Below are positions 6,295 through 62,061 of a stretch of 64,000 nucleotides of DNA, piece after piece. The notes under the pieces are model-generated. The model ran no database searches. It was given only the letters and a program-made list of their open reading frames with translations, and was not told the DNA's origin. How positions within the stretch are numbered: the first letter of the stretch is position 1; each line of letters starts with the position of its first letter. The stretch is from a virus. Taxonomy: Duplodnaviria > Heunggongvirae > Uroviricota > Caudoviricetes. Location of the stretch: IMG/VR virus record IMGVR_UViG_2675903313_000009; one strand, 5' to 3'. A program made the translations under genes and the position numbers.

Positions 6295-7476
6295 ATGAAC
6301 CTTTATATTATATCAACATTTAGGTTGGTCACAATATTGCCTATTAAAAGTGGAATTATCGTGAGCGAGCTGAAAGAGCTAATTACCGAATTAGATTTTG
6401 AACAATGGTTGGACACTGAAGGTATCGTTTATCGACGTGGAGGCGTGAGTGCTCGCGGTCGTGAAGTGAATATCAAGGAGTGTCCGGTATGTGGCAGCTC
6501 CAACTGGAAGGTATATTTCAATCTGACCAGTGGCGTCGGCAAATGCTTTGCTGGTGATCATCCCGAAGAGATTCAGTTCAATAAGCTGATCTTCCTCAAG
6601 CACTACAGCGGTAAATCACGACGACAGTTCGAGGAATATGTGCAGAACGCGCTGATCTCACAAGGATGGGCGCCGAAGAAGGAAGAGGTCGTGCTGGCCA
6701 GCAAGGTTGAACTCGAAGGGCCAGTAGCTCTCCCTCGACATTACGAACTCCCCATTGACGGTCGTCTTCCTGATTATCTGGTGGAGCGCCATATCTCCCC
6801 GGATCTGGCCAAATACTTTGATCTGCGTTACTGCGTCGAAGGCAAGCACGCATACGTCGATCCGTACACAGACCAGGTCAAAGGGCAGGTGTTTGATATG
6901 CGCATCCTGATACCGGTTTACGATCTGGATGGCGTGATGAAGACCTTCCAGGGGCGTGACATTACCGGTGCAGCAGAACGTCGCTACCTCTTTCCTATGC
7001 AGCTTCCAGCTTCAGGTAGGTTTCTCTACAACGGCCATAATGCAGTCGGCAAACAGACTGTAGTTGTCTGTGAGGGGGCGTTCGATGTTATGGGGGTCAA
7101 ACGAGCTATTTTTGACGAAGAAACATTACGTGATTACGTGGAACCAATAGGAACGTTCGGGATGCATCTATCTGGTAACACCACTCAGGATGCAGAAGAT
7201 CAGCTGGGCGCGTTCCTGACGCTCAAGGCGCGTGGGCTACGTAATGTGATTATGATGTGGGATAGTGAAAAGCAGGCTATACGCAACACTATGGCCGCAG
7301 CCAGGCGACTGAGCAGTATTGGTCTTAATGTGAAAATTGCATGTTTGGGCGAGGAAGGACTCGACCCCGGCGATGCGACCCCGGGGCAGATTATCAAAGC
7401 CTACTATTGCGCAAAACCTTACTCACGACAGCTTGAACTTTTAAGCAAGGTAAAAGGCATAGCTGCATTAGTTTGA
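6295..7476 (+). CDS. DNA primase (zinc ribbon plus TOPRIM-like); ORF open from 6223, alternative GTG start at 6361
   Basis: CPVCGSSNW...KCFAGDH zinc-binding motif, acidic VVVCEGAFDVMGV and MMWDSE segments; start context aaagaaaaacacATG. Confidence 0.6.
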   Translation: MNLYIISTFRLVTILPIKSGIIVSELKELITELDFEQWLDTEGIVYRRGGVSARGREVNIKECPVCGSSNWKVYFNLTSGVGKCFAGDHPEEIQFNKLIFLKHYSGKSRRQFEEYVQNALISQGWAPKKEEVVLASKVELEGPVALPRHYELPIDGRLPDYLVERHISPDLAKYFDLRYCVEGKHAYVDPYTDQVKGQVFDMRILIPVYDLDGVMKTFQGRDITGAAERRYLFPMQLPASGRFLYNGHNAVGKQTVVVCEGAFDVMGVKRAIFDEETLRDYVEPIGTFGMHLSGNTTQDAEDQLGAFLTLKARGLRNVIMMWDSEKQAIRNTMAAARRLSSIGLNVKIACLGEEGLDPGDATPGQIIKAYYCAKPYSRQLELLSKVKGIAALV

Positions 7477-12195: not shown

Positions 12196-12394
12196 ACGGG
12201 AGAAGGAAACGCTTCATGAAATCAGTAAGTGGCCGGAGTTCCCTGAGTACTGGAAGCCTAAAACGCGAGCTAAGTTAGAGCGTTTAGGGTTGGTTGCAAA
12301 CGTTTCTGAAACGTGGTGTTCGGCCAACTACCAGTTAACTGATAAAGGGAAAGTATTGCTACAGCAATTAGTAGAATCAGGAGTGTTAAAATGA
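12179..12394 (+). CDS. hypothetical small protein
   Basis: 71 aa ORF with AAGGAG 7 nt upstream of the ATG. Confidence 0.45.
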   Translation: MIVLSKREKETLHEISKWPEFPEYWKPKTRAKLERLGLVANVSETWCSANYQLTDKGKVLLQQLVESGVLK

Positions 12395-12543
12395 TTCCAT
12401 ACATCTCATTAGCTTTTATGGGTGGCTTCCTTATCGGCTTCGGCATCTGTCGTGATTTAATTAAGCAGGAACTTAAAACCAAAACACTGTGCATCGGAAA
12501 GCGTGTGTATCGGGTAGTTCATGAAACAAAGGTGAAAAAATGA
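12391..12543 (+). CDS. small single-TM membrane protein (paralog; MIPY N-terminus)
   Basis: 50 aa; hydrophobic helix then GKRVYRVVHETKVKK; start lies inside the recurring 13-mer AATGATTCCATAC. Confidence 0.4.
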   Translation: MIPYISLAFMGGFLIGFGICRDLIKQELKTKTLCIGKRVYRVVHETKVKK

Positions 12544-12830
12544 TCAATTTGACTTCTTGGAACTGGTGGTTGGCCACCTATTTCTTAGCGGCCGGAGTCG
12601 CATTCGCCTTTTACGTAGGTCAGTTAGTCGTAAAACTGTTGCTGATTAAATTTGCTAGTCATAAACGTATCGATGATGGTCTGTGGCGTCTTGGCACCCT
12701 GGTGGAAATTCGCTACGGGCAACTTAAGGAGAACGAAACCATTACTATCCAAGCGAAACGATTCACTGCCACCATTACAAGAACACCTAGTCGTAGAGTG
12801 GCCTTGATCAAAAAAGTCACAACCGAATAA
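12540..12830 (+). CDS. small membrane protein
   Basis: 96 aa with N-terminal TM helix; ATGA start/stop overlap with preceding ORF. Confidence 0.45.
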   Translation: MINLTSWNWWLATYFLAAGVAFAFYVGQLVVKLLLIKFASHKRIDDGLWRLGTLVEIRYGQLKENETITIQAKRFTATITRTPSRRVALIKKVTTE

Positions 12831-13220
12831 AAACATATTGATAAGTATTTACTTACTTATCTTTTGTGTATAAGATGACTTTGTTTTCGTTGAGACGCGA
12901 CTGTTTGAACTTAAATACAAGTGCAAACGAAGAAGTCTATCTGGCAGTAGCCTAATAAGCCAAACACCAGCGAGGTCAGTTTCCAGCCTCGTTACCGAAA
13001 TGGGACACACTGAGCGAGTGTGATTGCAGAACGCAGGAGGGAACATTCATGTTCCCTCCGATGAAGTAACAGAATGGGCGGTTGGTATATTTTCAACTCC
13101 ATATGACTCCCGGATTCTTAGCCACTGACCGCCCATCCTGTTACGTCATTTTGTTCAATTATGTCGTTTATACTGGGTTAAAAAGCGGCGACGTAGCCCG
13201 GCTGGTATGGTTAGCCAGCA

Positions 13221-13342
13221 CACAACGTTGAGGCCATTACATTTTTATCAATTCTAAGGTTCTATTCACAGAGATACCGGCGAACGTTGATATGTAACAT
13301 GTTGGGCAAACATTCAATCGGAGTAGTGGCCTCAACGTTGTG
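13221..13342 (+). other. long inverted repeat (16-bp perfect stem, about 90-nt loop) upstream of tRNA cluster
   Basis: cacaacgttgaggcca pairs with tggcctcaacgttgtg; stem sequence resembles the hairpin after tRNA-Ser. Confidence 0.5.
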
Positions 13343-13608
13343 AAGACGGGATTGTTGTGTAGGTTTAACCACTGTTGCCATTGGTGCCTGTTTTCACAAC
13401 AAATGATTCCATACATCACATAGTATAAATTACAAAGTAGGTGCTGTCCTCAGAAACATCATCTACTTAAAGATTTTGCCTTCTACTATTGAGCGAAGTC
13501 GAAAGCGTCTGGCACTAACGAAAAGTGCAAGTAGCGGTGCGTTTCCTGGCAGAAACTAAACCGTCGCGATTGGCACTGTTGAGTAATAAATACTGGCAGT
13601 GCTGAATT

Positions 13609-13683
13609 GATGGTGTAGCTCAGCGGTAGAGCAGTTGGCTGTTAACCAACTGGTCGGTGGTTCGAATCCACCCACCATCGCCA
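13609..13683 (+). tRNA. tRNA-Asn (anticodon GUU)
   Basis: cloverleaf read by eye: acceptor GATGGTG/CACCATC, anticodon loop CTGTTAA, T-loop TTCGAAT, encoded CCA. Confidence 0.85.
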
Positions 13684-13688
13684 ATTTA

Positions 13689-13775
13689 GGGGAGTTAGTC
13701 CGTAGAGGTAGCGGTGTAGACTGTAAATCTACTGTCATGGCGACTCGGGTGGTTCGACTCCATCACTCCCCACCA
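13689..13775 (+). tRNA. tRNA-Tyr (anticodon GUA), class II with long variable arm
   Basis: acceptor GGGGAGT/ACTCCCC, anticodon stem GTAGA/TCTAC with loop CTGTAAA, T-loop TTCGACT, encoded CCA; D-arm not fully resolved. Confidence 0.7.
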
Positions 13776-13779
13776 AATT

Positions 13780-13855
13780 GCCGGTTTAGCTCAGTTGGTA
13801 GAGCAGTCGCTTTGTAAGCGAATGGCCAGCGGTTCAAGTCCGTTAACCGGCACCA
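13780..13855 (+). tRNA. tRNA-Thr (anticodon UGU)
   Basis: acceptor GCCGGTT/AACCGGC, D-arm GCTC-AGTTGGTA-GAGC, anticodon loop TTTGTAA, T-loop TTCAAGT, encoded CCA. Confidence 0.8.
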
Positions 13856-13863
13856 ACACAACA

Positions 13864-13939
13864 GGTAAGAGCATTGGGCGAATCGGCGATACTGACCCAC
13901 AAGGCCGTAAATCGATAGAGTCAGACCAGTGCTCTTACC
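13864..13939 (+). other. inverted-repeat hairpin between tRNA-Thr and tRNA-Ser (14-bp stem)
   Basis: ggtaagagcattgg pairs with ccagtgctcttacc (one G-U), loop about 48 nt. Confidence 0.5.
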
Positions 13940-14045
13940 GTTGTGATGAATGCACAGGCTGATGTGCCGCAACTACAGTAGTGCGCGCTTTGCGGGGCTT
14001 GCTACAACCCTGTGTCGGAGTTCAGTACCGACCATCACAATAGCT

Positions 14046-14132
14046 GGAGAGTAGGGAGCATGGTGCTCAAGCGGTCTTGAAAACCGTTCCATTGTGCAAA
14101 CGATGATGGTTCGATTCCATTACTCTCCGCCA
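14046..14132 (+). tRNA. tRNA-Ser (anticodon UGA), class II
   Basis: acceptor GGAGAGT/ACTCTCC, anticodon stem GCGGT/ACCGT with loop CTTGAAA, long variable arm, T-loop TTCGATT, encoded CCA. Confidence 0.7.
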
Positions 14133-14134
14133 GA

Positions 14135-14212
14135 CACAGCGTTGAGCGGTTTGGCCTTTTAATCAACTCGATTAAGACTCCGCTAACATAAACCAGACCG
14201 CTCAACGCTGTG
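14135..14212 (+). other. inverted-repeat hairpin after tRNA-Ser (16-bp perfect stem)
   Basis: cacagcgttgagcggt pairs with accgctcaacgctgtg, loop 46 nt; stem sequence related to the 13221 hairpin. Confidence 0.5.
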
Positions 14213-15587: not shown

Positions 15588-15761
15588 GTATGTATTTCAC
15601 TCTACTAACTATAAATTATTAGGCTAATGTTAACCAAACAATGCCTTAATTAATAGATTGATCGAGGCTTTAATAGCTTTATAATGCAGACTGCAAAGAT
15701 AAGTATGCACATACCTATCTTCTTTGTAAGTAAAGTTGCATATCAATTCTATGAGGTAACA

Positions 15762-16007
15762 ATGACGATCACTATCTACGGACGAGATAACTGCTCATAC
15801 TGCAAACGTGCGGTCGAGCTGGCGAAGCAACTAAAGGGACATGGCTACGGTGATTATGAGTACATCGACATCACCACTGCCGGTATCAACAAGGAAAAAC
15901 TAAGTGAAATTGTTGGTAAACCGGTAGAGACTATCCCCCAGGTGCTGATCGATGGCCAGCCGATTGGCGGATACACAGAACTGGCTGCATACGTCAGCAC
16001 CCTCTGA
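15762..16007 (+). CDS. glutaredoxin/NrdH-like redoxin
   Basis: 81 aa with CSYC active-site motif and C-terminal TIPQVLIDGQPIGG; ORF open from 15684. Confidence 0.75.
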   Translation: MTITIYGRDNCSYCKRAVELAKQLKGHGYGDYEYIDITTAGINKEKLSEIVGKPVETIPQVLIDGQPIGGYTELAAYVSTL

Positions 16008-16012
16008 TTTTA

Positions 16013-16034
16013 ACGGCTCACAGGAGCCGTTTTT
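16013..16034 (+). terminator. rho-independent terminator
   Basis: stem acggctc/gagccgt followed by T5. Confidence 0.65.
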
Positions 16035-16086
16035 ATTCCCACCAAACTCACTCCCATTTCCCTTAAAATTCAAAAAACAACGTCAA

Positions 16087-16119
16087 AATGATTCCATACC
16101 TACTATGTATGGAATCATT
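16087..16119. other. candidate site-specific recombination core site (13-bp inverted arms, 7-bp spacer)
   Basis: AATGATTCCATAC-ctactat-GTATGGAATCATT, perfect arms, 100 bp upstream of the tyrosine recombinase gene. Confidence 0.5.
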
Positions 16120-16217
16120 ACTGAAAATGAGTTACTTTTACTCTTGATCCTATAAGAATCTATGCCTAATATACTGTTTACTTATACAGTGAATCGGCGT
16201 AACTCGGTGATTGTCAT

Positions 16218-17321
16218 ATGAAAAATAGCTTTGACAGAGCACGCGCTGCGGAGAACACCTCAAAAGAGGCGATTGAGTATCTCGAAAGAGCATCTCAAAT
16301 GCAGGCCGTTATGATCTCGCAGGTCAGCAATGACATGAGATTCTCGGACGCATTCATGTTATTCACTCGCTTATCTCTGCTGATAACAAGACGTCGGCCA
16401 GAGATCGCTGTTCATTGTATTTTGATACATGTTTTGCCGCACATTGCCGATGTAAAAGTAAGTGACATTAATAGGTTCATGGTGAACCAACTGGTCAACC
16501 CACTAATACTGGATGGCAAAATTGTTATGGGCCGCCGCGTTTTCTCTCTGATGAAGCAGTTCCTTAGCTGGTGCGCCTTCCAGGGGATGATAGACGTGTC
16601 ACCGTTAAACGATATGTCACTAAACAAAGTTGCCGGTGGCGCAAAGCCCACACCTCGCGAGCGGAAGCTGACCGACGCAGAGGTATGGGTGTTCTGGAAT
16701 ATATGGGACTACTTCAATGTGTGCGCTGGTACAAAATGGGCGGCCAGGCTGTGTCTTGTATCCGCAAGACGACCTGACGAAGTACTGCGGGCTAAAAAAA
16801 GTGAGTTCAATCTTAAGCGTGGGGTTTGGAATCAAGGCAAGAGGAACAAATCTGCCCGTGAGCATTCGCTGCCTTTAAGCACATTAATGCGCACATGTAT
16901 TGAAGAGTTGTTCGAATACGGTAAAGGCAGCCAGTGGCTCGTGCCTTCGAATAAAAAAATCGGGAAAGACCTTCCTATGTCTAAAGTGGCAATAGCCCAG
17001 GCATTACGTCGTATCCTGGAACGACCAGAACTGATGGAGCTTGAGCCATTTACACCCCGAGACTTGCGCCGTACTGCGCGTAGTTACTTCCCAGCATTAG
17101 GCATAAGCCAGGAGGTATCACGCAAAATCATGAACCACAGTCTTGAGGGGATAGATCGAGTCTACGACCGGCACGATTATATGGACGAGATGCGAGACGC
17201 CTTAGAAAGTTTCTCGACGTACATCGCATCAATCGTAGAGCAACCGGATTTAGACGAAATTGACCACAAATTCAAGGGAGATCGTCTATCAACAGAGCTT
17301 ATTCGTGTAAATTTTTCATAG
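16218..17321 (+). CDS. tyrosine recombinase (integrase/resolvase family)
   Basis: catalytic-domain motifs LVSARRPDE, TPRDLRRTARSYF and HSLEGIDRVYDRHDY (R...H-x-x-R...Y). Confidence 0.8.
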   Translation: MKNSFDRARAAENTSKEAIEYLERASQMQAVMISQVSNDMRFSDAFMLFTRLSLLITRRRPEIAVHCILIHVLPHIADVKVSDINRFMVNQLVNPLILDGKIVMGRRVFSLMKQFLSWCAFQGMIDVSPLNDMSLNKVAGGAKPTPRERKLTDAEVWVFWNIWDYFNVCAGTKWAARLCLVSARRPDEVLRAKKSEFNLKRGVWNQGKRNKSAREHSLPLSTLMRTCIEELFEYGKGSQWLVPSNKKIGKDLPMSKVAIAQALRRILERPELMELEPFTPRDLRRTARSYFPALGISQEVSRKIMNHSLEGIDRVYDRHDYMDEMRDALESFSTYIASIVEQPDLDEIDHKFKGDRLSTELIRVNFS

Positions 17322-17702
17322 AGACTTTATGGCCTCAACAACCTTTTGTGATGCGCCTTTCTCTTTACCGAATCGCTCGTTATATGCAGCAAGAACCTGT
17401 TTTTCGTCCTCGTTAAGAGGAGCGGTGCCTTCTTTGTATAAAAATGCTGCGAGTTCAGGTTGGCGTTCTTCCAGCACCATCATCATAAGACGACTTGGCT
17501 CAATACCCAGCGCCAGCGCCAACGGACGAACCTTATCGATAGGCAAAGGAATTTTGCCACTTTTAATTAAAGAAAGGTTGTTGGCATTTTTATAACCAAT
17601 AAGTCTGGCTATTTGGGCCTGACTCATAGGTGAGGATTCAATCAGCCCTGCGATAAAAGCAGCATAGCGACTTTCTATAAATTCAATCTTGTTGTCAGAC
17701 AT
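17316..17702 (-). CDS. XRE-family helix-turn-helix regulator (repressor-like)
   Basis: HTH SQAQIARLIGYKNANNLSLIKSGK; divergent from downstream genes; palindromic operator in its promoter. Confidence 0.6.
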   Translation of the reverse strand: MSDNKIEFIESRYAAFIAGLIESSPMSQAQIARLIGYKNANNLSLIKSGKIPLPIDKVRPLALALGIEPSRLMMMVLEERQPELAAFLYKEGTAPLNEDEKQVLAAYNERFGKEKGASQKVVEAIKSL

Positions 17703-17952: not shown

Positions 17953-18165
17953 ATGAACACCACTATTTCCAGCCTAATCGCTCTTGAGATCGGACACGTA
18001 CAGAAATTAGCTGATGAGTGTGTAGCTGACATCCTCACCGATCTACCGAATGAGCAGATTCAGGTTGGTGTGAATGACACAACTGGCTTTATATTCGAAC
18101 TTAACAACAAACGCTTCACGCTTCTCAATATCGGCTCCGGGTCTTTAGCCGTCAGAATCTGTTAA
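17953..18165 (+). CDS. hypothetical small protein
   Basis: 70 aa ORF divergent from the repressor gene. Confidence 0.4.
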   Translation: MNTTISSLIALEIGHVQKLADECVADILTDLPNEQIQVGVNDTTGFIFELNNKRFTLLNIGSGSLAVRIC

Positions 18166-21705: not shown

Positions 21706-21909
21706 GTGCGTAAAGGATGTTTCGGCTCTCTTATCGCTGCTTCTGAAACTGGTAAGGCTTGTCTGGTGTGTCCAGACAAGCCCGATTGTCACCAATCAGC
21801 AAAAGAAGTTGCGATTTCGATGCATGGGAAGTTCGTAGGCTTCCCCAATGACAAAATCAAAAAAACCAGAAAGGTAAAAACACATGAAGGCACTGATGGT
21901 TCGAACTGA
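21706..21909 (+). CDS. small Cys-rich hypothetical protein (uncertain)
   Basis: 67 aa, GTG start, overlaps the polymerase start region. Confidence 0.3.
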   Translation: MRKGCFGSLIAASETGKACLVCPDKPDCHQSAKEVAISMHGKFVGFPNDKIKKTRKVKTHEGTDGSN

Positions 21910-24900
21910 CTTCTCACTTGGGGAGTCGGCTCTAAAAGCAGAAAACGCGGTGAAGATTGCCAGAGAAGCTGGCTACACCGCTGTAATTTCAGCAGATAGC
22001 ATGAATATTGCGAGCGTTATTCCACTACAACGTGCCGCTGGTGACGACATGGCGGTTATTTGTGGTGTGAAACTAAACATTGTTGATGATCCCACATACG
22101 AGCACCGGGCTAAACTTGCTAAAGAATCTATGAGATGTATGGAATCATTAGAGCGGGGACGTAACTACTCGTTTACCGCTCTAATTAAAAATGAGCAAGG
22201 ATATCGCGACATCTGCGAACTAATGACGGTGGCCAACACACGAGAACAGTTCTACTTTGTACCGCGTCTCTCGCTCGAAAAGTTGGTTTCTACATATGCC
22301 AAAGGCAACATCATCCTGCTCACTTCCGACATCGGTAGCGTGTTCCAACGCAACGATTTTGCAAAAATCATAAGCTCACTGATTACAGCGGGCGGGAAAG
22401 ACAACTTCTATAGTGTGGTTTATCCGCACCCTACCCCATTCTACGACCAGATTAACGTCCGAGCGATGAAAGTCGCCAGCGCACTGAAAATAGAGCCAGT
22501 AGCGTTCTATCCCGCTTATTACGAATCGATCGACGATGCAGACATTAAAGACATTGCGCACATGGTTACGAACAACATAAAAATCGACCAGCCGCATCGT
22601 CTGCGTATCCCCCACCAGCGAGATAACGCCATCAATGGTCGTCGCCATCTCCTTGAGGCGCTTAAAGCCTTCTCCGTTCGCATGGATGTGCCGGTAACAG
22701 CTGCAATGGCCTCAACAACGCAGGACTCCATTATCGATGCCTGCACATGGCGCTGGCATGAATTGCCACCAGCACTGCCCAAGATGGCAGACGACGAACC
22801 TGCAACGCTGATGAAACTGGCTGTTGCAGGGCTGCGTAAACGTCTTACCACAAAAGAGTTTGGATACACACCACCTGCTTCTGAGAACAGGGTTTATGTT
22901 GAGCGGCTAAAGTACGAAATGGACACGCTGACTCGCCTGGGATTCTGTGGTTACTTCCTGATGGTACGCGATCTGATGAATCACAGCCGTGAAACTGGCA
23001 TTCCTGTCGGGCCTGGTCGTGGTTCCTCTGCCGGTTCTCTGGTGGCGTGGTGCATAGGCATAACCAACGTCGACCCAATCCGTCACGGTCTTCTGTTTGA
23101 GCGTTTCATCAACCCTGAGCGTCTCGACTTGCCGGATGCGGACTTGGACTTCAGCCAGGCACGTCGCCATGAGGTGATCGAGTATCTGAATGAACGCTAC
23201 GGCGAAGATTACGTTGCAGGCATTCCGAACTTCACCTACCTGGGCGCAGCCTCTGCACTACGTGACACCGCTCGTATTTATGGTGTGGAGTCCGCAGATA
23301 TGGCGGTATCAAAAGAACTGAAGAACGTCGAGGATGATAGCCTTCCATTGGAAGAGCTGCGCGAACAACTGGCAAGTCTCGACAAATACGCAACAAAATA
23401 TCCTGATGCATTCAATGCAGCCTGCAAGTTACAAAGCCTTATGCGTGGCTTTGGTAGACATGCGGCAGGGATGATCGTAGCAGGTGTTCCTCTAACAGAA
23501 CGTACACCGGTTGAGCGCCGTGGTGACGCGCGTTGTATCGCATTTGACAAGCGTTACTGCGAGGCTATGGGCCTAATTAAGCTGGACGTACTTGGTCTGG
23601 CAACTCTCGATTTGCTCGATAGTGCAAAACGCTACATAAAAGAGAACACAGGTGAAGATATCAATCTTGATGCCATTTCTCTTGAAGATCGCAAGGTGCT
23701 GGATGGTTTTGCTGCTGGGTACACTCAAGGTGTTTTCCAGCTTGAATCAGGCCCAATGCGCAAGCTGCTTAAAGATTTAGGTGGTGGAATTGAGCCAATG
23801 AGCTTTAAAACGGTTGTTGCTACGACTGCGCTCTTCCGGCCGGGGCCAATTCAGTCAGGCATGTTGGATGACTATGTTTCTGTAGCCAAAGGCTTTATGA
23901 CGCCGGAATCATTACACCCCGTTCTTGATGAACTTACCGCAGAAACAAATGGCGTGATTCTCTATCAGGAACAGACGATGAACGCGACTCGATTGCTTGC
24001 TGGCTTCACAATGGCTGAAGCTGACGGCGTTCGTAAAGCGATCGGTAAAAAAGACATGGAAAAAATGAAGAGCATGGGCGAGAAGTTCATCGTTCAGGCT
24101 CAAGCTGGCTGGATAGACGTTGAGCTGGAAGATGGCACTACACAGCGCATTCACCGTGCGGAACATTTTAAATGCGAAGACGGAACTCTGAAAACTGTCG
24201 AAGAGGCACTTGAGTACGGCGCAAAACTACCTATAAACGCAGTACGCGTTACAGCGTCACATCCAGGGCTATCAGAGATGAAAGCGAAGGAGATCTGGAC
24301 CGCATTCGAAAAGAATGGTGCCTACCAGTTCAACAAATCACACTCTGTTGCTTACTCCTTAATCAGTTATCAATCTATGTGGTTGAAAACTCATTATCCC
24401 GCGGAGTTCTTCGCTGCTGCTCTCACTATTCTTGGCGAAGATAAACACCAGGGGCTGGTTAAAGATGCGCTGACCTATGGTATTCGCGTATTGCCACCAG
24501 ACGTTAACGTGTCATCTAACCGAATCGAGATCCGCACGCTTGAAGATGGCAGCCAGGTGCTGTATGCGCCCTTCTCTGCTGTGAAAGGGTGTTCTGAGAA
24601 TGGCTGCCAAGCCATCATGAGAGCGCGAGAAAAAGTTGGCGGCAAATTCGAGTCACTGGCGCAATTCGAAGAAGCTGTCGAGAAACGTGCCTGTAATAGT
24701 CGAGTGCGCGAATCGCTGCAAAAAGTAGGGGCGTTTGCATCCATCGAGCCAGGCAGTCTGCCAGCAACTGATCCAGAGCGCCTACGCGACCAGGCTGAAT
24801 TGATGGGAAACCTTGTCATAGACGCAGTTAAAGCCTCACGTCCGTTTGAGATGAACCCCAAACGTTCGGCTGAAATTAACGTACTCATGACGCGGATGGC

Positions 24901-25402
24901 GGCTGAAATGGGCTTAGGTGATGAACTAATCCGCCCCAGCATTGGTATTAAGCCGAAAATCATGATCATTCTGGACAATGCGAACGGCAATGATGCTCGA
25001 ACCGGTTACTTTATGGAGAACGGATACGACGACTTTAAGGCCAAGCTATTGACGGCTGGAGATTTACGCATGGGCGATCTCTATGTCACAGGTGTTTGCA
25101 AGAAGGTTAAAGACAAAGAAAAAGACTACACCAAAGACGAGATCGGCCAGTTCACCGACTTTATGCGTGAAGAGATCAATCTGGTGCGTCCGACCTATGT
25201 GCTGACGTGTGGCAGCCGGGCAACTTCATTGTTTAACAACAAAAACAAGCCATCCGATTTGGTCGGCAGGAAGGAGTATCTTCCAGACCTTGACGTTACT
25301 GTCTTTTACGGGTTTAACCCCAACATTCTTTACTTCAGACCTGAAGAGGGAGAACGACTAGAAGCGATATTAGCCGACGTAGCAGAAACCATTAAGACGT
25401 GA
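21884..25402 (+). CDS. dnaE: DnaE-type (DNA polymerase III alpha-like) replicative polymerase
   Basis: 1172 aa; segments GIPVGPGRGSSAGSLVAW, LLFERFINPERLDLPD and FNKSHSVAYSLISYQSMWLKTHYPAEF closely parallel E. coli DnaE. Confidence 0.9.
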   Translation: MKALMVRTDFSLGESALKAENAVKIAREAGYTAVISADSMNIASVIPLQRAAGDDMAVICGVKLNIVDDPTYEHRAKLAKESMRCMESLERGRNYSFTALIKNEQGYRDICELMTVANTREQFYFVPRLSLEKLVSTYAKGNIILLTSDIGSVFQRNDFAKIISSLITAGGKDNFYSVVYPHPTPFYDQINVRAMKVASALKIEPVAFYPAYYESIDDADIKDIAHMVTNNIKIDQPHRLRIPHQRDNAINGRRHLLEALKAFSVRMDVPVTAAMASTTQDSIIDACTWRWHELPPALPKMADDEPATLMKLAVAGLRKRLTTKEFGYTPPASENRVYVERLKYEMDTLTRLGFCGYFLMVRDLMNHSRETGIPVGPGRGSSAGSLVAWCIGITNVDPIRHGLLFERFINPERLDLPDADLDFSQARRHEVIEYLNERYGEDYVAGIPNFTYLGAASALRDTARIYGVESADMAVSKELKNVEDDSLPLEELREQLASLDKYATKYPDAFNAACKLQSLMRGFGRHAAGMIVAGVPLTERTPVERRGDARCIAFDKRYCEAMGLIKLDVLGLATLDLLDSAKRYIKENTGEDINLDAISLEDRKVLDGFAAGYTQGVFQLESGPMRKLLKDLGGGIEPMSFKTVVATTALFRPGPIQSGMLDDYVSVAKGFMTPESLHPVLDELTAETNGVILYQEQTMNATRLLAGFTMAEADGVRKAIGKKDMEKMKSMGEKFIVQAQAGWIDVELEDGTTQRIHRAEHFKCEDGTLKTVEEALEYGAKLPINAVRVTASHPGLSEMKAKEIWTAFEKNGAYQFNKSHSVAYSLISYQSMWLKTHYPAEFFAAALTILGEDKHQGLVKDALTYGIRVLPPDVNVSSNRIEIRTLEDGSQVLYAPFSAVKGCSENGCQAIMRAREKVGGKFESLAQFEEAVEKRACNSRVRESLQKVGAFASIEPGSLPATDPERLRDQAELMGNLVIDAVKASRPFEMNPKRSAEINVLMTRMAAEMGLGDELIRPSIGIKPKIMIILDNANGNDARTGYFMENGYDDFKAKLLTAGDLRMGDLYVTGVCKKVKDKEKDYTKDEIGQFTDFMREEINLVRPTYVLTCGSRATSLFNNKNKPSDLVGRKEYLPDLDVTVFYGFNPNILYFRPEEGERLEAILADVAETIKT

Positions 25403-32190: not shown

Positions 32191-32237
32191 ATGCAAACTG
32201 ACTGCGGCTCGTTCCGCAGTCATATTTCATAGTCGTC

Positions 32238-32770
32238 ACCGCTGACAGCATACACAATCAACTACCGCTGATAGCATATCGAGAGTCTATATCACCGCTC
32301 ACAGCATACTTTACTCGATTTTTTACCGCTGGCAGCATACTTAAGACATTGCATGAATAATGTGTACCGGTATGGGTATAACCAGAACAAAATTACCGCT
32401 GGCAGCATACGAAGGTCTGACATATACCATTAATTACCGCTGATAGCATATCCAAACAAAAATTCCTCAATAAAACACCGCTGACAGCATACGTTCTATC
32501 AGGGAGCAGCAGGCAATAAATGCCTTTCACTACAAGCAATCAGCGCAATAGCAATAGAATGTTAGTGAGCGCAAACCTATATGGAATGCACTCTTCGAGG
32601 TTAGTAACCACTGGGGAGGTATGACAGAGCATTGAGTGGTGATAGATGATTTACCGCTCACAGCATACGTTTATCTCACTATACCGCTGGTAGCATATCT
32701 TTAACCGTTCACAGCATACTTTTCAGAAAAATAGCCGCTGATAGCATACATTTCACCGCTGACAGCATAT
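32238..32770 (+). repeat. iteron array downstream of repA (incA-like copy-control locus), 12 copies
   Basis: 16-bp direct repeats ACCGCT(G/C)NYAGCATAY at 32238, 32264, 32294, 32325, 32395, 32436, 32477, 32653, 32683, 32704, 32734, 32755. Confidence 0.8.
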
Positions 32771-33864
32771 CAAAGCAGTTTGAGACTATTGGAAAGGATC
32801 TCAATCATCTTGATATTTTCAGGCGTCAAATTCTGCGAAAGTTCGGTTATCTTGTTGATAATGTTCTGTTTGGCATCAATTTCCCCAGCTTTCTCATCTG
32901 GTTTTTTGGGTTCGATGTCTTCAGGTTTTGGCGGTGCGACTTTGAGTTTTGGATTGCGGCTGTGAATCTGGATATAGATCGACCGCCCTCGCTTAATCTC
33001 GCTGTATTCGAGATAGCCCAAATCTTGGAGAGCTTTTAAGCCGTTACGTATAGTCTGATTCTGCGAGCTGACATTCCTGCTACTCAAATTGAGTCGCGCA
33101 CGTAATCGAGCAAGCGATACCGGCGCAGGCTTGGTTGGAAGACTTTCGATGAAGGTGTACAGAGCCTGTGCTGTTTCTTTGCGTGGTAGCTTATTGATAA
33201 CCTTTAACTGCAAAAGAACCTTATGGTCAAAGCGATATAGTTCGGCCAGCTTCGGTTCTGCATAGAACACCACCGTATCTTTCTGCTCGTTGTAGTCCAC
33301 GCTATTGATGAGGTGCACCATCAGAAGCGAGATCTTGTTAGAGCCGTCGACATTCTTTTCTTCATACGTTCTCTGAAAAGACAGAGTTGTACGCATGATC
33401 TTCAAAAGACTGTTTGTAAGCCGGTCGCGGAGTGTTTTGCGGATCTGTGACGATGGATAGCCACAAAACTTCGCAAATTTCGTGATGCTTAACTCGACAC
33501 GACCGTTAGGTTCGCCGTATTCTGCCAGCGAACGCACAACGCCCACCCACGTTTTGAAATCATGATCCATGTCGAGACGAGGACCGGTTATCTTGATATC
33601 GGAATAACCTTCAGAACGGGCTACTTCGAGCTGAACAAGCTCCTTTGAAGCATCGATCTCATTTGGCTTATTACGCTTGCTGTATTTTGTCCCCTTGAGC
33701 GTGGGCACGAACAACCCCAGCCGCATCAACGCAATTGGTTGGACTGTATTGTTGCTATTAGGGACAAGTTCCCCTGTGTACAATTCAAGGGAACCTTCTT
33801 CAAAGTTGTCGAGATTATCTTCTACTTCTTTGTTATTTTTACCTTTTTTATTTTTTGTGGACAT
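32770..33864 (-). CDS. repA: iteron-binding replication initiator (RepA/Rep3-like)
   Basis: 364 aa basic protein flanked on both sides by iterons; ATG at 33864 preceded by aaagg; ORF open to 33984. Confidence 0.7.
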   Translation of the reverse strand: MSTKNKKGKNNKEVEDNLDNFEEGSLELYTGELVPNSNNTVQPIALMRLGLFVPTLKGTKYSKRNKPNEIDASKELVQLEVARSEGYSDIKITGPRLDMDHDFKTWVGVVRSLAEYGEPNGRVELSITKFAKFCGYPSSQIRKTLRDRLTNSLLKIMRTTLSFQRTYEEKNVDGSNKISLLMVHLINSVDYNEQKDTVVFYAEPKLAELYRFDHKVLLQLKVINKLPRKETAQALYTFIESLPTKPAPVSLARLRARLNLSSRNVSSQNQTIRNGLKALQDLGYLEYSEIKRGRSIYIQIHSRNPKLKVAPPKPEDIEPKKPDEKAGEIDAKQNIINKITELSQNLTPENIKMIEILSNSLKLL

Positions 33865-33884
33865 GTGGACACCTTTGTCATTCA

Positions 33885-33986
33885 ACCGCTGACAGCATAC
33901 TTGATTTGCCGCTGGCAGCATACCAAAAACAGTTGGCAGCATACGGCGAACCGTTGACAGACTATCAATTACCGCTGGTAGCATAC
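33885..33986. repeat. origin-proximal iterons (incC-like), 3 intact plus 2 degenerate
   Basis: accgctgacagcatac, gccgctggcagcatac, accgctggtagcatac plus partial copies, immediately upstream of repA. Confidence 0.75.
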
Positions 33987-61340: not shown

Positions 61341-61637
61341 AATGTCTATTTTTAACCCAACATACCCTCAATACTGCAACATCAGTGTCTTGCGAATTAA
61401 GATAGTGTGAATAGATTTTTCATGCAAGTGCATAAGCCTGTGGATAACTCAGGAAGGAAAAAGTGACTTCTGCGCACTTTAGACCGGACAAGGCGTTCGA
61501 AAAAGTCAATGGGAAGAAAAAATTTGTTAAAAATAACGTTTGTTTGAATTGTATATATTTATGCCTTTCAATAGTTAGCATCTTATTAACATCTTTTTTA
61601 AGAGATAGAGTTCAAAAATATATAGCTTCAATATACA

Positions 61638-61653
61638 CTGTATGTGTATACAG
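61638..61653 (+). promoter_or_regulatory. LexA (SOS) box
   Basis: CTGTATGTGTATACAG, matching the CTGT-N8-ACAG consensus, about 20 bp upstream of the umuD'-like start. Confidence 0.8.
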
Positions 61654-61671
61654 TATTAAGAGGCGAGTATT

Positions 61672-62061
61672 ATGGGCTTCCCTTCTCCTGCGGCGGATTA
61701 TGCTGAGAGCCGTATTTCTCTTGATCAGCAGATAATTAGACATCCTTCAGCGACCTACTTCATGAGGGCAGCTGATAGTCATCATCGTGAGGGAATATTA
61801 CAGGGTGCATTGCTGGTGGTCGATTCCTCACTTACCCCGGTTGATGGTTCTCTGCTTGTATGCGCTCTGGATGGGGAATATCGCGTAAAAAGATACCGGA
61901 AGTATCCACGTCAGCATCTGGAGGATTTAAGAACCGGTAAGAAGGAAGCATTGCCAAAGGATGACGATGGATGCACGGGCAGCAATGCCGTGTTTGGTGT
62001 GATCACTCACATTATCAACGACGCAAGAAGTGGCGAGTTTGATGATTGTCCCGTGATGTAG
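61672..62061 (+). CDS. UmuD'-like (pre-truncated UmuD/S24 peptidase family) protein
   Basis: starts GFPSPAADY (the UmuD' N-terminus), then HPSATYF, DS(H), DGEYRVK and VFGVITHI parallel UmuD; no N-terminal cleavage region. Confidence 0.75.
   Translation: MGFPSPAADYAESRISLDQQIIRHPSATYFMRAADSHHREGILQGALLVVDSSLTPVDGSLLVCALDGEYRVKRYRKYPRQHLEDLRTGKKEALPKDDDGCTGSNAVFGVITHIINDARSGEFDDCPVM

Follow-up and report, generated by a model that had tools for sequence, protein, structure and literature searches.

The window analyzed here is the whole 64,000-nt stretch of the IMG/VR virus record IMGVR_UViG_2675903313_000009 (Caudoviricetes), a phage-plasmid of the SSU5/pHCM2 type. It encodes a tyrosine recombinase preceded by an inverted repeat, and the present work deals with this pair and with single copies of the repeat arm dispersed in its vicinity (Table 1). 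The region 15600-17400, which includes the pair, is 100% identical in the Escherichia coli plasmid pTW10722_119, shows 97% identity to the phage-plasmid Cyrano (pLF82), described as SSU5-like (PMC9928086), and is matched by 644 PLSDB plasmids from Escherichia, Klebsiella, Enterobacter, Citrobacter, and Salmonella. An earlier reading made by a model from the letters alone (the original prediction) had described a perfect 13-7-13 inverted repeat about 100 bp upstream of the recombinase gene; on re-reading, the repeat (AATGATTCCATAC-CTACTAT-GTATGGAATCATT) is exact and 98 bp separate its end from the ATG. This geometry corresponds to that of core sites of the lox/FRT/dif type, with two inverted arms of 11-14 bp and a spacer of 6-8 bp. 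Folding of the repeat as a single strand of DNA gives -11.9 kcal/mol (z = -7.1 relative to shuffled sequences).

The 13-mer that forms the arm occurs in five exact copies in the window (12390+, 13402+, 16087+, 16107-, and 22137-), compared with 0.01 copies expected from 100 dinucleotide-preserving shuffles. The two copies that had been recognized outside the repeat, 12390-12402 (+) and 13402-13414 (+), are exact, and the 20-mers beginning there agree at 19/20 positions. A further copy had been overlooked: it lies at 22137-22149 on the minus strand, within a dnaE-like gene (21884-25402), and is identical at 20/20 positions to 12390-12409 and at 21/22 to 13402-13423. The statement that such recurrence is unlikely by chance thus holds, and a chance origin of the copies is ruled out by the shuffles together with their conservation in relatives. 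The two direct copies were also said to flank about 1 kb of small membrane-protein open reading frames (ORFs); the segment comprises two ORFs of 50 and 96 amino acids (aa) and then ~570 nt of non-coding DNA, and small membrane-protein ORFs are thus only part of it.

Table 1. Features of the repeat, the recombinase gene and the single arm copies in the window
Feature	Coordinates	Strand	Description
Core site	16087-16119	no strand	13-bp arm 16087-16099, 7-bp spacer CTACTAT 16100-16106, 13-bp arm 16107-16119
A/T-rich element TAAAATTCAAAAAA	16064-16077	no strand	~10 bp left of the core; conservation of 0.7-0.8 per column
Putative recombinase promoter	16144-16172	+	-35 TTGATC 16144-16149, 17-nt gap, -10 TAATAT 16167-16172
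Predicted LexA (SOS) box TACTGTTTACTTATACAGTG	16172-16191	no strand	overlaps -10/+1 of the putative promoter
Tyrosine recombinase gene	16218-17321	+	367 aa; core-binding and catalytic domains, no arm-binding domain
Half-site 1, AATGATTCCATACATC	12390-12405	+	contains the ATG of a 50-aa membrane ORF, 12391-12543 (MIPYI...)
Half-site 2, AATGATTCCATACATC	13402-13417	+	non-coding, 190 nt upstream of the tRNA cluster
Half-site 3, AATGATTCCATACATC	22134-22149	-	within dnaE, antisense, codon ~84; codons R-C-M-E-S-L
Degenerate fourth half-site GATTCCAAAC	16821-16836	-	inside the recombinase gene, ~720 bp right of the repeat center

The encoded protein matches PF00589 (E = 6.8e-10), located after a helical core-binding domain, as well as PF22022, and lacks the arm-binding domain PF13356 that is carried by its distant homologs P0114-P0120. 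Residues R184/R185, R281/R284/R285, Y316, and Y321 are invariant across 17 homologs with 43-86% identity and, by analogy, are the putative catalytic residues. The AlphaFold model (predicted local distance difference test score, pLDDT, 81.7) has a helical N-terminus and its best Foldseek match is lambda Int (E = 4e-7), followed by Tn1549 Int, XerH, IntI, and, weakly, Cre (E ~0.03); the fold similarity to XerD and XerH is only distant, and no PDB chain, Cre included, matches the protein by sequence at E <= 0.01. Having PF00589 behind the core-binding domain and the conserved Arg...Arg...Tyr residues of the superfamily, the protein is a true tyrosine recombinase with a two-domain fold.

Relatives of the recombinase were collected from ~140 loci (71 from IMG/VR, 4 from assemblies, and 65 from GTDB species genomes, the latter retrieved with a profile built from the 17 homologs), which are carried by plasmids of ~100-120 kb and by megaplasmids. 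A 13-7-13 repeat is located 60-270 bp upstream of nearly every homolog, down to 44% identity, so that the search for the same site in other genomes proposed in the original prediction gave a positive answer. Two classes of arms were distinguished. Class A arms (AATGATTCCATAC) accompany recombinases with at least 56% identity to the window protein and were found in E. coli, Klebsiella, a 108-kb contig of Yersinia pestis, Kluyvera, Buttiauxella, Nissabacter-type genomes, and Chimaeribacter, whereas class B arms (TRTGACTCCAGAC) accompany recombinases with 44-52% identity in Pantoea, Rahnella, Erwinia, Ewingella, Hafnia, Xenorhabdus, Photorhabdus, Providencia, and Morganella. Both classes track the recombinase clades in the protein tree. 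From class A to class B the inner changes T6C and T11G are identical in both arms, evidencing that the palindrome was kept through the change in specificity.

Across 58 unique sequences the class A arms are invariant; spacer variation affects three positions and follows Y-T-A-N-T-A-R. Spacer length is always 7 bp, and more than 15 versions exist in either orientation relative to the gene, the commonest being TTAATAG and its complement CTATTAA. Both spacer orientations relative to the gene are seen in L064, L084, and many class-B loci, with class A and class B arms alike, as though the 7-bp core had been turned around between lineages. The combination of fixed arms and a free spacer would be the behavior of sites that need to match only their own copy.

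The association between repeat and recombinase is independent of the neighboring genes. In ~50/66 loci the homologs of the helix-turn-helix (HTH) gene, cobT, the AAA5 ATPase gene, and dnaE that surround the pair in the window are missing within 10 kb and repeat and recombinase are still paired, which leaves the recombinase gene as the sole constant partner of the repeat that was found. The repeat thus follows the gene into ~50 loci devoid of all five other window genes tested, many of these loci lying on contigs of 200-900 kb that are probably megaplasmids, and since arm class follows the recombinase clade and the site follows the gene into otherwise unrelated replicons, this is the pattern of a site-specific enzyme and its site. 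In the Y. pestis NCTC5923 contig (L081, 108 kb) the recombinase has 86% identity to that of the window and the repeat is the same; the half-sites within dnaE and within the recombinase gene are both present as well.

Between repeat and gene lies a putative promoter that is conserved in relatives, matches 8/12 consensus positions and went unreported by a consensus scan; the repeat ends ~25 bp upstream of its -35. The predicted LexA box contains CTGT-N8-ACAG at 16174-16189, one of only two such sequences in the window. Considering its overlap with the putative promoter, the recombinase should be produced mainly after DNA damage. A LexA box is present between repeat and gene in 69/78 class-A loci and in 0/53 class-B loci, suggesting that SOS control is a derived trait of largely the same clade as the one that carries the half-sites. 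A second strong LexA box (TACACTGTATGTGTATACAGTA, 61634-61655) was detected directly upstream of a 129-aa ORF (61672-62061) that is considered UmuD-like from the annotation of the corresponding Cyrano gene as a LexA-like S24 peptidase; with this box the element has at least two predicted SOS-controlled promoters.

The A/T-rich element to the left of the repeat is moderately conserved where the left flanks are otherwise unrelated, a right-hand A-tract (16124-16127) that matches it is conserved as well, and the left element is possibly a bending or accessory-protein site. An intrinsic terminator was discarded, the plus strand having no T-run after the hairpin and the T-rich tail of the minus strand being unconserved in relatives. 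A replication fork trap or lytic origin centered on the repeat, prompted by the orientation of the single copies, received no support either, given that there is no skew switch and that the iteron origin is 16-18 kb distant.

Across relatives, the conserved single-copy unit is a 16-nt sequence, nATGATTCCATACATC, found at the same places. Mean pairwise identity at half-site 1 is 0.95 compared with 0.66 in its flanks (31 unique contexts), at half-site 2 it is 0.95 vs 0.50 (30 unique contexts), and at half-site 3 it is 0.99 vs 0.79, with 1/16 variable positions in the site and 79/120 in the flanks (30 unique contexts). Half-site 2 occupies the equivalent place in Klebsiella-type relatives and in the relatives L071 and L077. 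With regard to half-site 1, the homolog of the 50-aa ORF in L071 starts with MMDGLAG and has no site, and the MIPYI start occurs only where the site is present, which means that MIPYI is not a protein requirement. The motif in dnaE encodes C-M-E-S-L in a loop where relatives that lack the site read KKDAPAP, DEELLPI, or GETQLPV. In the relative L006 (~6950-6975) a 9-bp tandem duplication, ACATCTCAT, falls exactly at the dnaE half-site and adds three codons. The fourth half-site, decayed in the window, has kept its intact form (TTGATTCCATACATC) in L071, the Y. pestis contig, and plasmids of the Klebsiella type; it is the weakest of the set, since the conserved W-N-Q-G codons force part of the match. 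Being imposed on, and held at, tolerant coding positions, the motif works as DNA or RNA.

In the complete genomes of Cyrano (108 kb) and the Klebsiella phage pJN2-26 (110 kb) the 10-mer core of the motif occurs only in one cluster of 9-12 kb, compared with 0.2 copies expected. In every locus the copies lying to the left of the repeat have plus-strand orientation and those lying to the right minus-strand orientation. Positions 14-16 of the half-sites are invariably ATC, and the corresponding positions of the repeat arms read Y-T-R. No conserved second arm, not even a degenerate one, was found at the half-sites across relatives; no GTATG at a spacing of 5-9 bp is conserved across lineages, and GTAT at 8 bp is present only in the E. 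coli-type site 2. Half-sites are confined to this phage-plasmid clade: none were found in class-B loci, including five phage-plasmids with the same gene order, nor in the class-A Chimaeribacter. Their absence from these loci indicates that they are an add-on and not part of the basic system.

What is observed directly in the genomes comprises the sites, their conservation, the co-variation of arms and protein, the independence from neighboring genes, the orientation of the copies, and the pattern of LexA boxes, and from these observations we infer binding, catalysis, multimer resolution, and any function of the half-sites. The repeat is in all likelihood the core target site of the adjacent recombinase, as the conserved geometry, the co-varying arms, the free spacer, and the repeat following the gene all support the lox/dif-like reading of the original prediction. 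One recombinase monomer would sit on each 13-bp arm and strand exchange would take place across the 7-bp spacer. When a plasmid dimer arises by homologous recombination, the two directly repeated sites could recombine to yield monomers fit for partition, similar to the task of Cre/loxP in P1; on the analogy with Cre/loxP and the general expectation for phage-plasmids (PMC7969092), multimer resolution is probably the job of the repeat. The LexA box over the putative promoter would restrict synthesis of the enzyme mainly to periods after DNA damage, and the three 16-nt half-sites plus the decayed fourth are most simply read as additional sites, each of which would be bound by one monomer of this recombinase. 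Such sites are expected to bind without recombining, because position 14 is A (C/T in the repeat) and the second arm is absent; the chances that they do so are judged to be even, and a regulatory or architectural role is expected for them. Taken as a whole, this explanation (core site, resolution, SOS control, and half-site binding) is on balance considered the right one.

Several points weigh against it. The resolution role is proposed by analogy and from the intact state of the site, and an autoregulatory or other role of the repeat is conceivable. The explanation does not account for SOS control of a resolution enzyme. The half-sites are not simple copies of the arms, as evidenced by ATC instead of Y-T-R after the 13-mer, and their reader might be another protein, or they might function as RNA. 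The system of recombinase and repeat can do without them, as it does in class-B loci and in Chimaeribacter. The orientation rule involves 3-4 independent site classes, with a chance probability of ~1 in 4 to 1 in 8, and is only suggestive.

A bolder version, in which the SOS-controlled resolution recombinase has been given a second job through the half-sites, acting on replication, transcription, or DNA architecture at prophage induction, is regarded as speculative and rather unlikely. The half-sites, embedded in the replication module, converge on the core and are located in the start of a small ORF, the tRNA leader, dnaE, and the recombinase gene; if this version were true, they would represent a plasmid-scale counterpart of the non-recombining sites of XerD, and a recombinase would be tied in a new way to the lytic switch.

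Alternatively, the sites might be partners in a programmed rearrangement, either inversion of the 9.7-kb segment between 12390 (+) and 22149 (-) or deletion/exchange between the direct copies, resembling a shufflon (sfx, with one conserved arm) or an integron that inserts cassettes beside attI. The segments 12390-12409 and 22130-22149 are inverted and 20/20 identical, sharing the 7-nt ATCTCAT as a possible spacer. However, in genomes from beyond the E. coli subgroup the sites within a single genome do not have the 7 nt behind the arm in common, which makes the 20/20 match of the window a lineage-specific one; within Klebsiella-type genomes these nucleotides differ beyond the ATC and strand exchange would fail, and the inversion would in addition break dnaE. 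In chimeric junction queries against PLSDB, the junction was spanned in 0/194 E. coli-type plasmid records, both for inversion between site 1 and dnaE and for deletion between site 2 and the repeat, and no inverted or deleted arrangement was found in ~70 IMG/VR loci. Wherever a relative covers the region, the two direct copies are ~986-1025 bp apart, and copies that seemed missing are single synonymous base variants. Variable presence of the 12390-13414 segment among relatives, for which the original prediction proposed a test, is contradicted by this constant spacing, and of the suggestion that the copies are half-sites or remnants of a past recombination event the first part stands, given their nucleotide-level conservation at the same places, while there is no sign of past or ongoing recombination between them. 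Recombination scars were discarded as well, considering the constant spacing and the fact that two of the sites lie in coding regions at which the residues of relatives are unrelated.

From the tRNA cluster to the repeat extends a hypervariable stretch (1.2-6.7 kb), and in several comparisons homology resumes 0-3 bp from the left arm, which could speak for rearrangement. A sharp boundary at the left arm fits exchange between phage-plasmids at the site and also fits plain site conservation beside a hot spot; moreover, the boundary is softened by the weakly conserved A/T element further left. On the other side, homology runs continuously through both half-sites to ~14310, past the tRNA cluster, and hence the left boundary of the variable region is not at a half-site. 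Both observations led to the rejection of a cassette model. The gene is under predicted LexA control, as integron integrases are, its box overlapping the putative -10 in the window and being present in most class-A loci, the site is located just upstream and a variable gene region lies beyond, all reminiscent of IntI/attI. Nevertheless, the variable genes are not bounded by copies of the motif or by attC-like repeats and IntI is a weaker fold match than lambda Int. In the Rci/sfx shufflon of R64, only one sfx arm is conserved, together with a conserved 7-bp spacer, and inversion is frequent; the window sites resemble sfx in having one conserved arm and differ in sharing only 3 nt after it and in the lack of inversions in the plasmids and loci mentioned above. 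Programmed rearrangement is thus deemed improbable.

It could also be proposed that the single copies act as RNA, with a leader or small RNA (sRNA) from the tRNA operon regulating its target mRNAs by base pairing. Transcripts of the plus strand from the left contain AUGAUUCCAUACAUC, the perfect complement of GAUGUAUGGAAUCAU in dnaE mRNA and, in Klebsiella-type relatives, also in recombinase mRNA. With all genes on the plus strand, the left sites are sense and the right sites antisense, resulting in 15-16 nt of perfect transcript complementarity; site 2 lies within a structured non-coding leader, site 1 covers a start codon, and the invariant ATC extension is common to the single copies and not shared by the repeat arms. 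A role as RNA does not predict that the single copies should match exactly the arms of a palindrome in DNA whose sequence changes along with that of a DNA-binding enzyme. Nor is there, within genomes, co-variation of site 2 and dnaE at the bases past the 16-mer. No Rfam family matches and neither a promoter nor sRNA boundaries are evident: a promoter at site 2 was rejected (no -35, and no conservation in Klebsiella-type relatives), and no known RNA family was recognized at the locus apart from the tRNAs. The RNA explanation is accordingly given little credence.

A dimeric regulator is the next candidate. The repeat might be an operator bound by the 128-aa HTH protein, or by the recombinase as a mere regulator, with the single copies as further operators. 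Fixed palindromic arms around a free spacer would suit such a regulator too, the position of the repeat shortly upstream of the putative -35 would be appropriate, the adjoining HTH gene has a counterpart in Cyrano annotated as a putative repressor, and the dispersed asymmetric C1 operators of P1 offer a precedent. The reading as an operator of the HTH repressor was nonetheless rejected on account of the presence of the repeat with the recombinase gene in the ~50 loci devoid of an HTH homolog. Long contiguous half-sites are typical of the clamps of tyrosine recombinases, as in the Cre and lambda Int complexes, and for a small HTH monomer a stretch of 13-16 invariant bp would be long; the 7-bp spacing and the Y-T-N-N-N-A-R spacer pattern fit instead the overlap regions of integrase-type sites. 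An operator function of the repeat is given little credence as well.

Lastly, that the repeat is an attP for chromosomal integration, as suggested by the nearest more distant homologs (P4-type integrases with an arm-binding domain, 26-34% identity) and by the fold matches to lambda Int and the Tn1549 integrase, is very improbable, since the recombinase has no arm-binding domain (PF13356), no cluster of arm-type sites surrounds the core with its perfectly symmetric arms, and the repeat is intact beside the gene in nearly all loci examined, the 200-900 kb contigs included, with no split attL/attR, when a used attP would be split.

Assuming that the repeat is the core site of the recombinase, the pair can be compared with known systems. 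Cre/loxP of P1, Dre/rox, Vika/vox, and Panto/pox likewise consist of a single recombinase beside a perfect palindrome with 13-bp arms (PMC4957104, PMC10250229), and Cre/loxP resides as well on a plasmid prophage, where it serves multimer resolution (PMC7969092), the likely role of the window pair too, with co-inheritance of site and enzyme. The parallel drawn in the original prediction with Cre/loxP does not extend to the molecules themselves: the window protein has no detectable sequence similarity to Cre, its fold is nearer to lambda Int, and the spacer has 7 bp and not 8. Dispersed half-sites and predicted SOS control also separate it from the Cre-type pairs. Published searches for Cre-type systems require an 8-bp spacer and homology to Cre, and would consequently miss the pair described here. 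With the lambda/P4-type integrases it shares the core-binding and catalytic fold, a spacer of the size of a 7-bp overlap, and distant P4-type sequence relatives, and it differs from them in lacking an arm-binding domain and arm-type sites, in its symmetric arms, and in a site never seen split. Xer/dif has an 11-6-11 site, compared with 13-7-13, and uses XerC/XerD under FtsK rather than a single plasmid-encoded enzyme.

The half-sites have a possible parallel in the extra XerD sites at the terminus of Bacillus subtilis and Staphylococcus aureus reported by Karaboja et al. 2021, which, according to the summary in PMC9226527, have one bona fide arm, a non-recombining role, and act without XerC/dif. 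Both sets consist of sites with a single bona fide arm that exist besides a full recombination site; the XerD sites retain the second arm's innermost five bp, which the window half-sites do not, and they are chromosomal and unload SMC, whereas the window half-sites belong to a phage-plasmid of 110 kb, are no more than 6 kb away from the core, and are partly intragenic.

The motif of TnpI from Tn5401 was reportedly described by Baum in 1995 as forming the inverted-repeat core site by its gene and occurring as single copies in the terminal inverted repeats, which gives the same succession of a right-pointing motif, the core, and a left-pointing motif. A related TnpI system is that of Tn4430 (PMC2847244). 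The window region differs in that it is not a transposon and has no transposase, and in that its right-hand site is in frame in an essential-looking dnaE.

Altogether, the core system is an uncharacterized member of the kind formed by a simple tyrosine recombinase and a palindromic site, and the predicted SOS control together with the conserved, oriented, intragenic half-sites would set it apart from the known members. Repeat and recombinase very probably constitute an unstudied lox-like pair present on many enterobacterial plasmids and phage-plasmids, and literature searches on the SSU5 integrase, LexA, multimer resolution, the motif, and the papers on the discovery of Cre-type systems found no description of enzyme or site. 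Phage-plasmids of the SSU5/pHCM2/pMT1 type occur frequently in clinical E. coli, Klebsiella, Salmonella, and Y. pestis, and the analysis provides their persistent "integrase" with a precise predicted target and a likely role in stable inheritance. The arm classes, differing at two inner positions, represent a natural example of a shift in recombinase specificity, and with a sequence unrelated to Cre, a 7-bp spacer, and two natural specificity classes the pair is a candidate orthogonal recombinase for genome engineering. In the half-sites a signal of DNA (or RNA) is kept almost without change within sequence that encodes protein, and their role could reveal links among DNA damage, replication, and plasmid maintenance.

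Regarding the genomic context, the repeat is preceded in the window by genes for a helicase, a primase, and a ligase, small ORFs, the tRNA cluster (13609-14132), variable accessory genes, and grxA, and the recombinase gene is followed by the convergent 128-aa HTH gene, a 70-aa ORF, a cobT-like gene, the AAA5 ATPase gene, and dnaE. The HTH gene (17316-17702, minus strand) overlaps the recombinase gene convergently by 6 nt (17316-17321), as a consequence of which SOS-driven transcription of the recombinase would run antisense into the putative repressor gene. The divergent 70-aa ORF (17953-18165, plus strand) is in a cro-like position and its arrangement with the HTH gene may constitute a lysogeny switch. 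In the Xenorhabdus relative L078 (14481-16802) the AAA5 ATPase gene contains a LAGLIDADG insertion with the appearance of an intein, and in the Nissabacter-type relative L077 (15864-19463) dnaE was called as two ORFs.

The tRNA cluster is preceded by ~780 nt of non-coding DNA (12831-13608) with a 20-bp stem (13221-13240/13323-13342), and a similar stem, CACAnCGTTGAG, follows tRNA-Ser (14135-14212). A weak match to a transfer-messenger RNA (tmRNA) was obtained in Rfam at 12904-13006 (17 bits, far under the threshold). This non-coding region may encode a structured RNA.

At 32234-33985, at least 14 iterons (ACCGCTGACAGCATA) form two blocks flanking the region that corresponds to repA of Cyrano; this field is the plasmid replication origin. 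Two families of palindromes are dispersed in the window. The first, AGAAAACAAnTTGTTTAA, has ~9 copies (792, 4820, 18219, 30621, 42540, 52762, 53491, 54224, and 57132) and is probably a promoter or operator family. The second, ATAAGTAnnTACTTACTTAT, has ~10 copies (3924, 4057, 9325, 12841, 15699, 29493, 35436, 40118, 51873, and 55931), several of them directly 5' of ORFs, for example ahead of grxA, and may mark early promoters with an operator.

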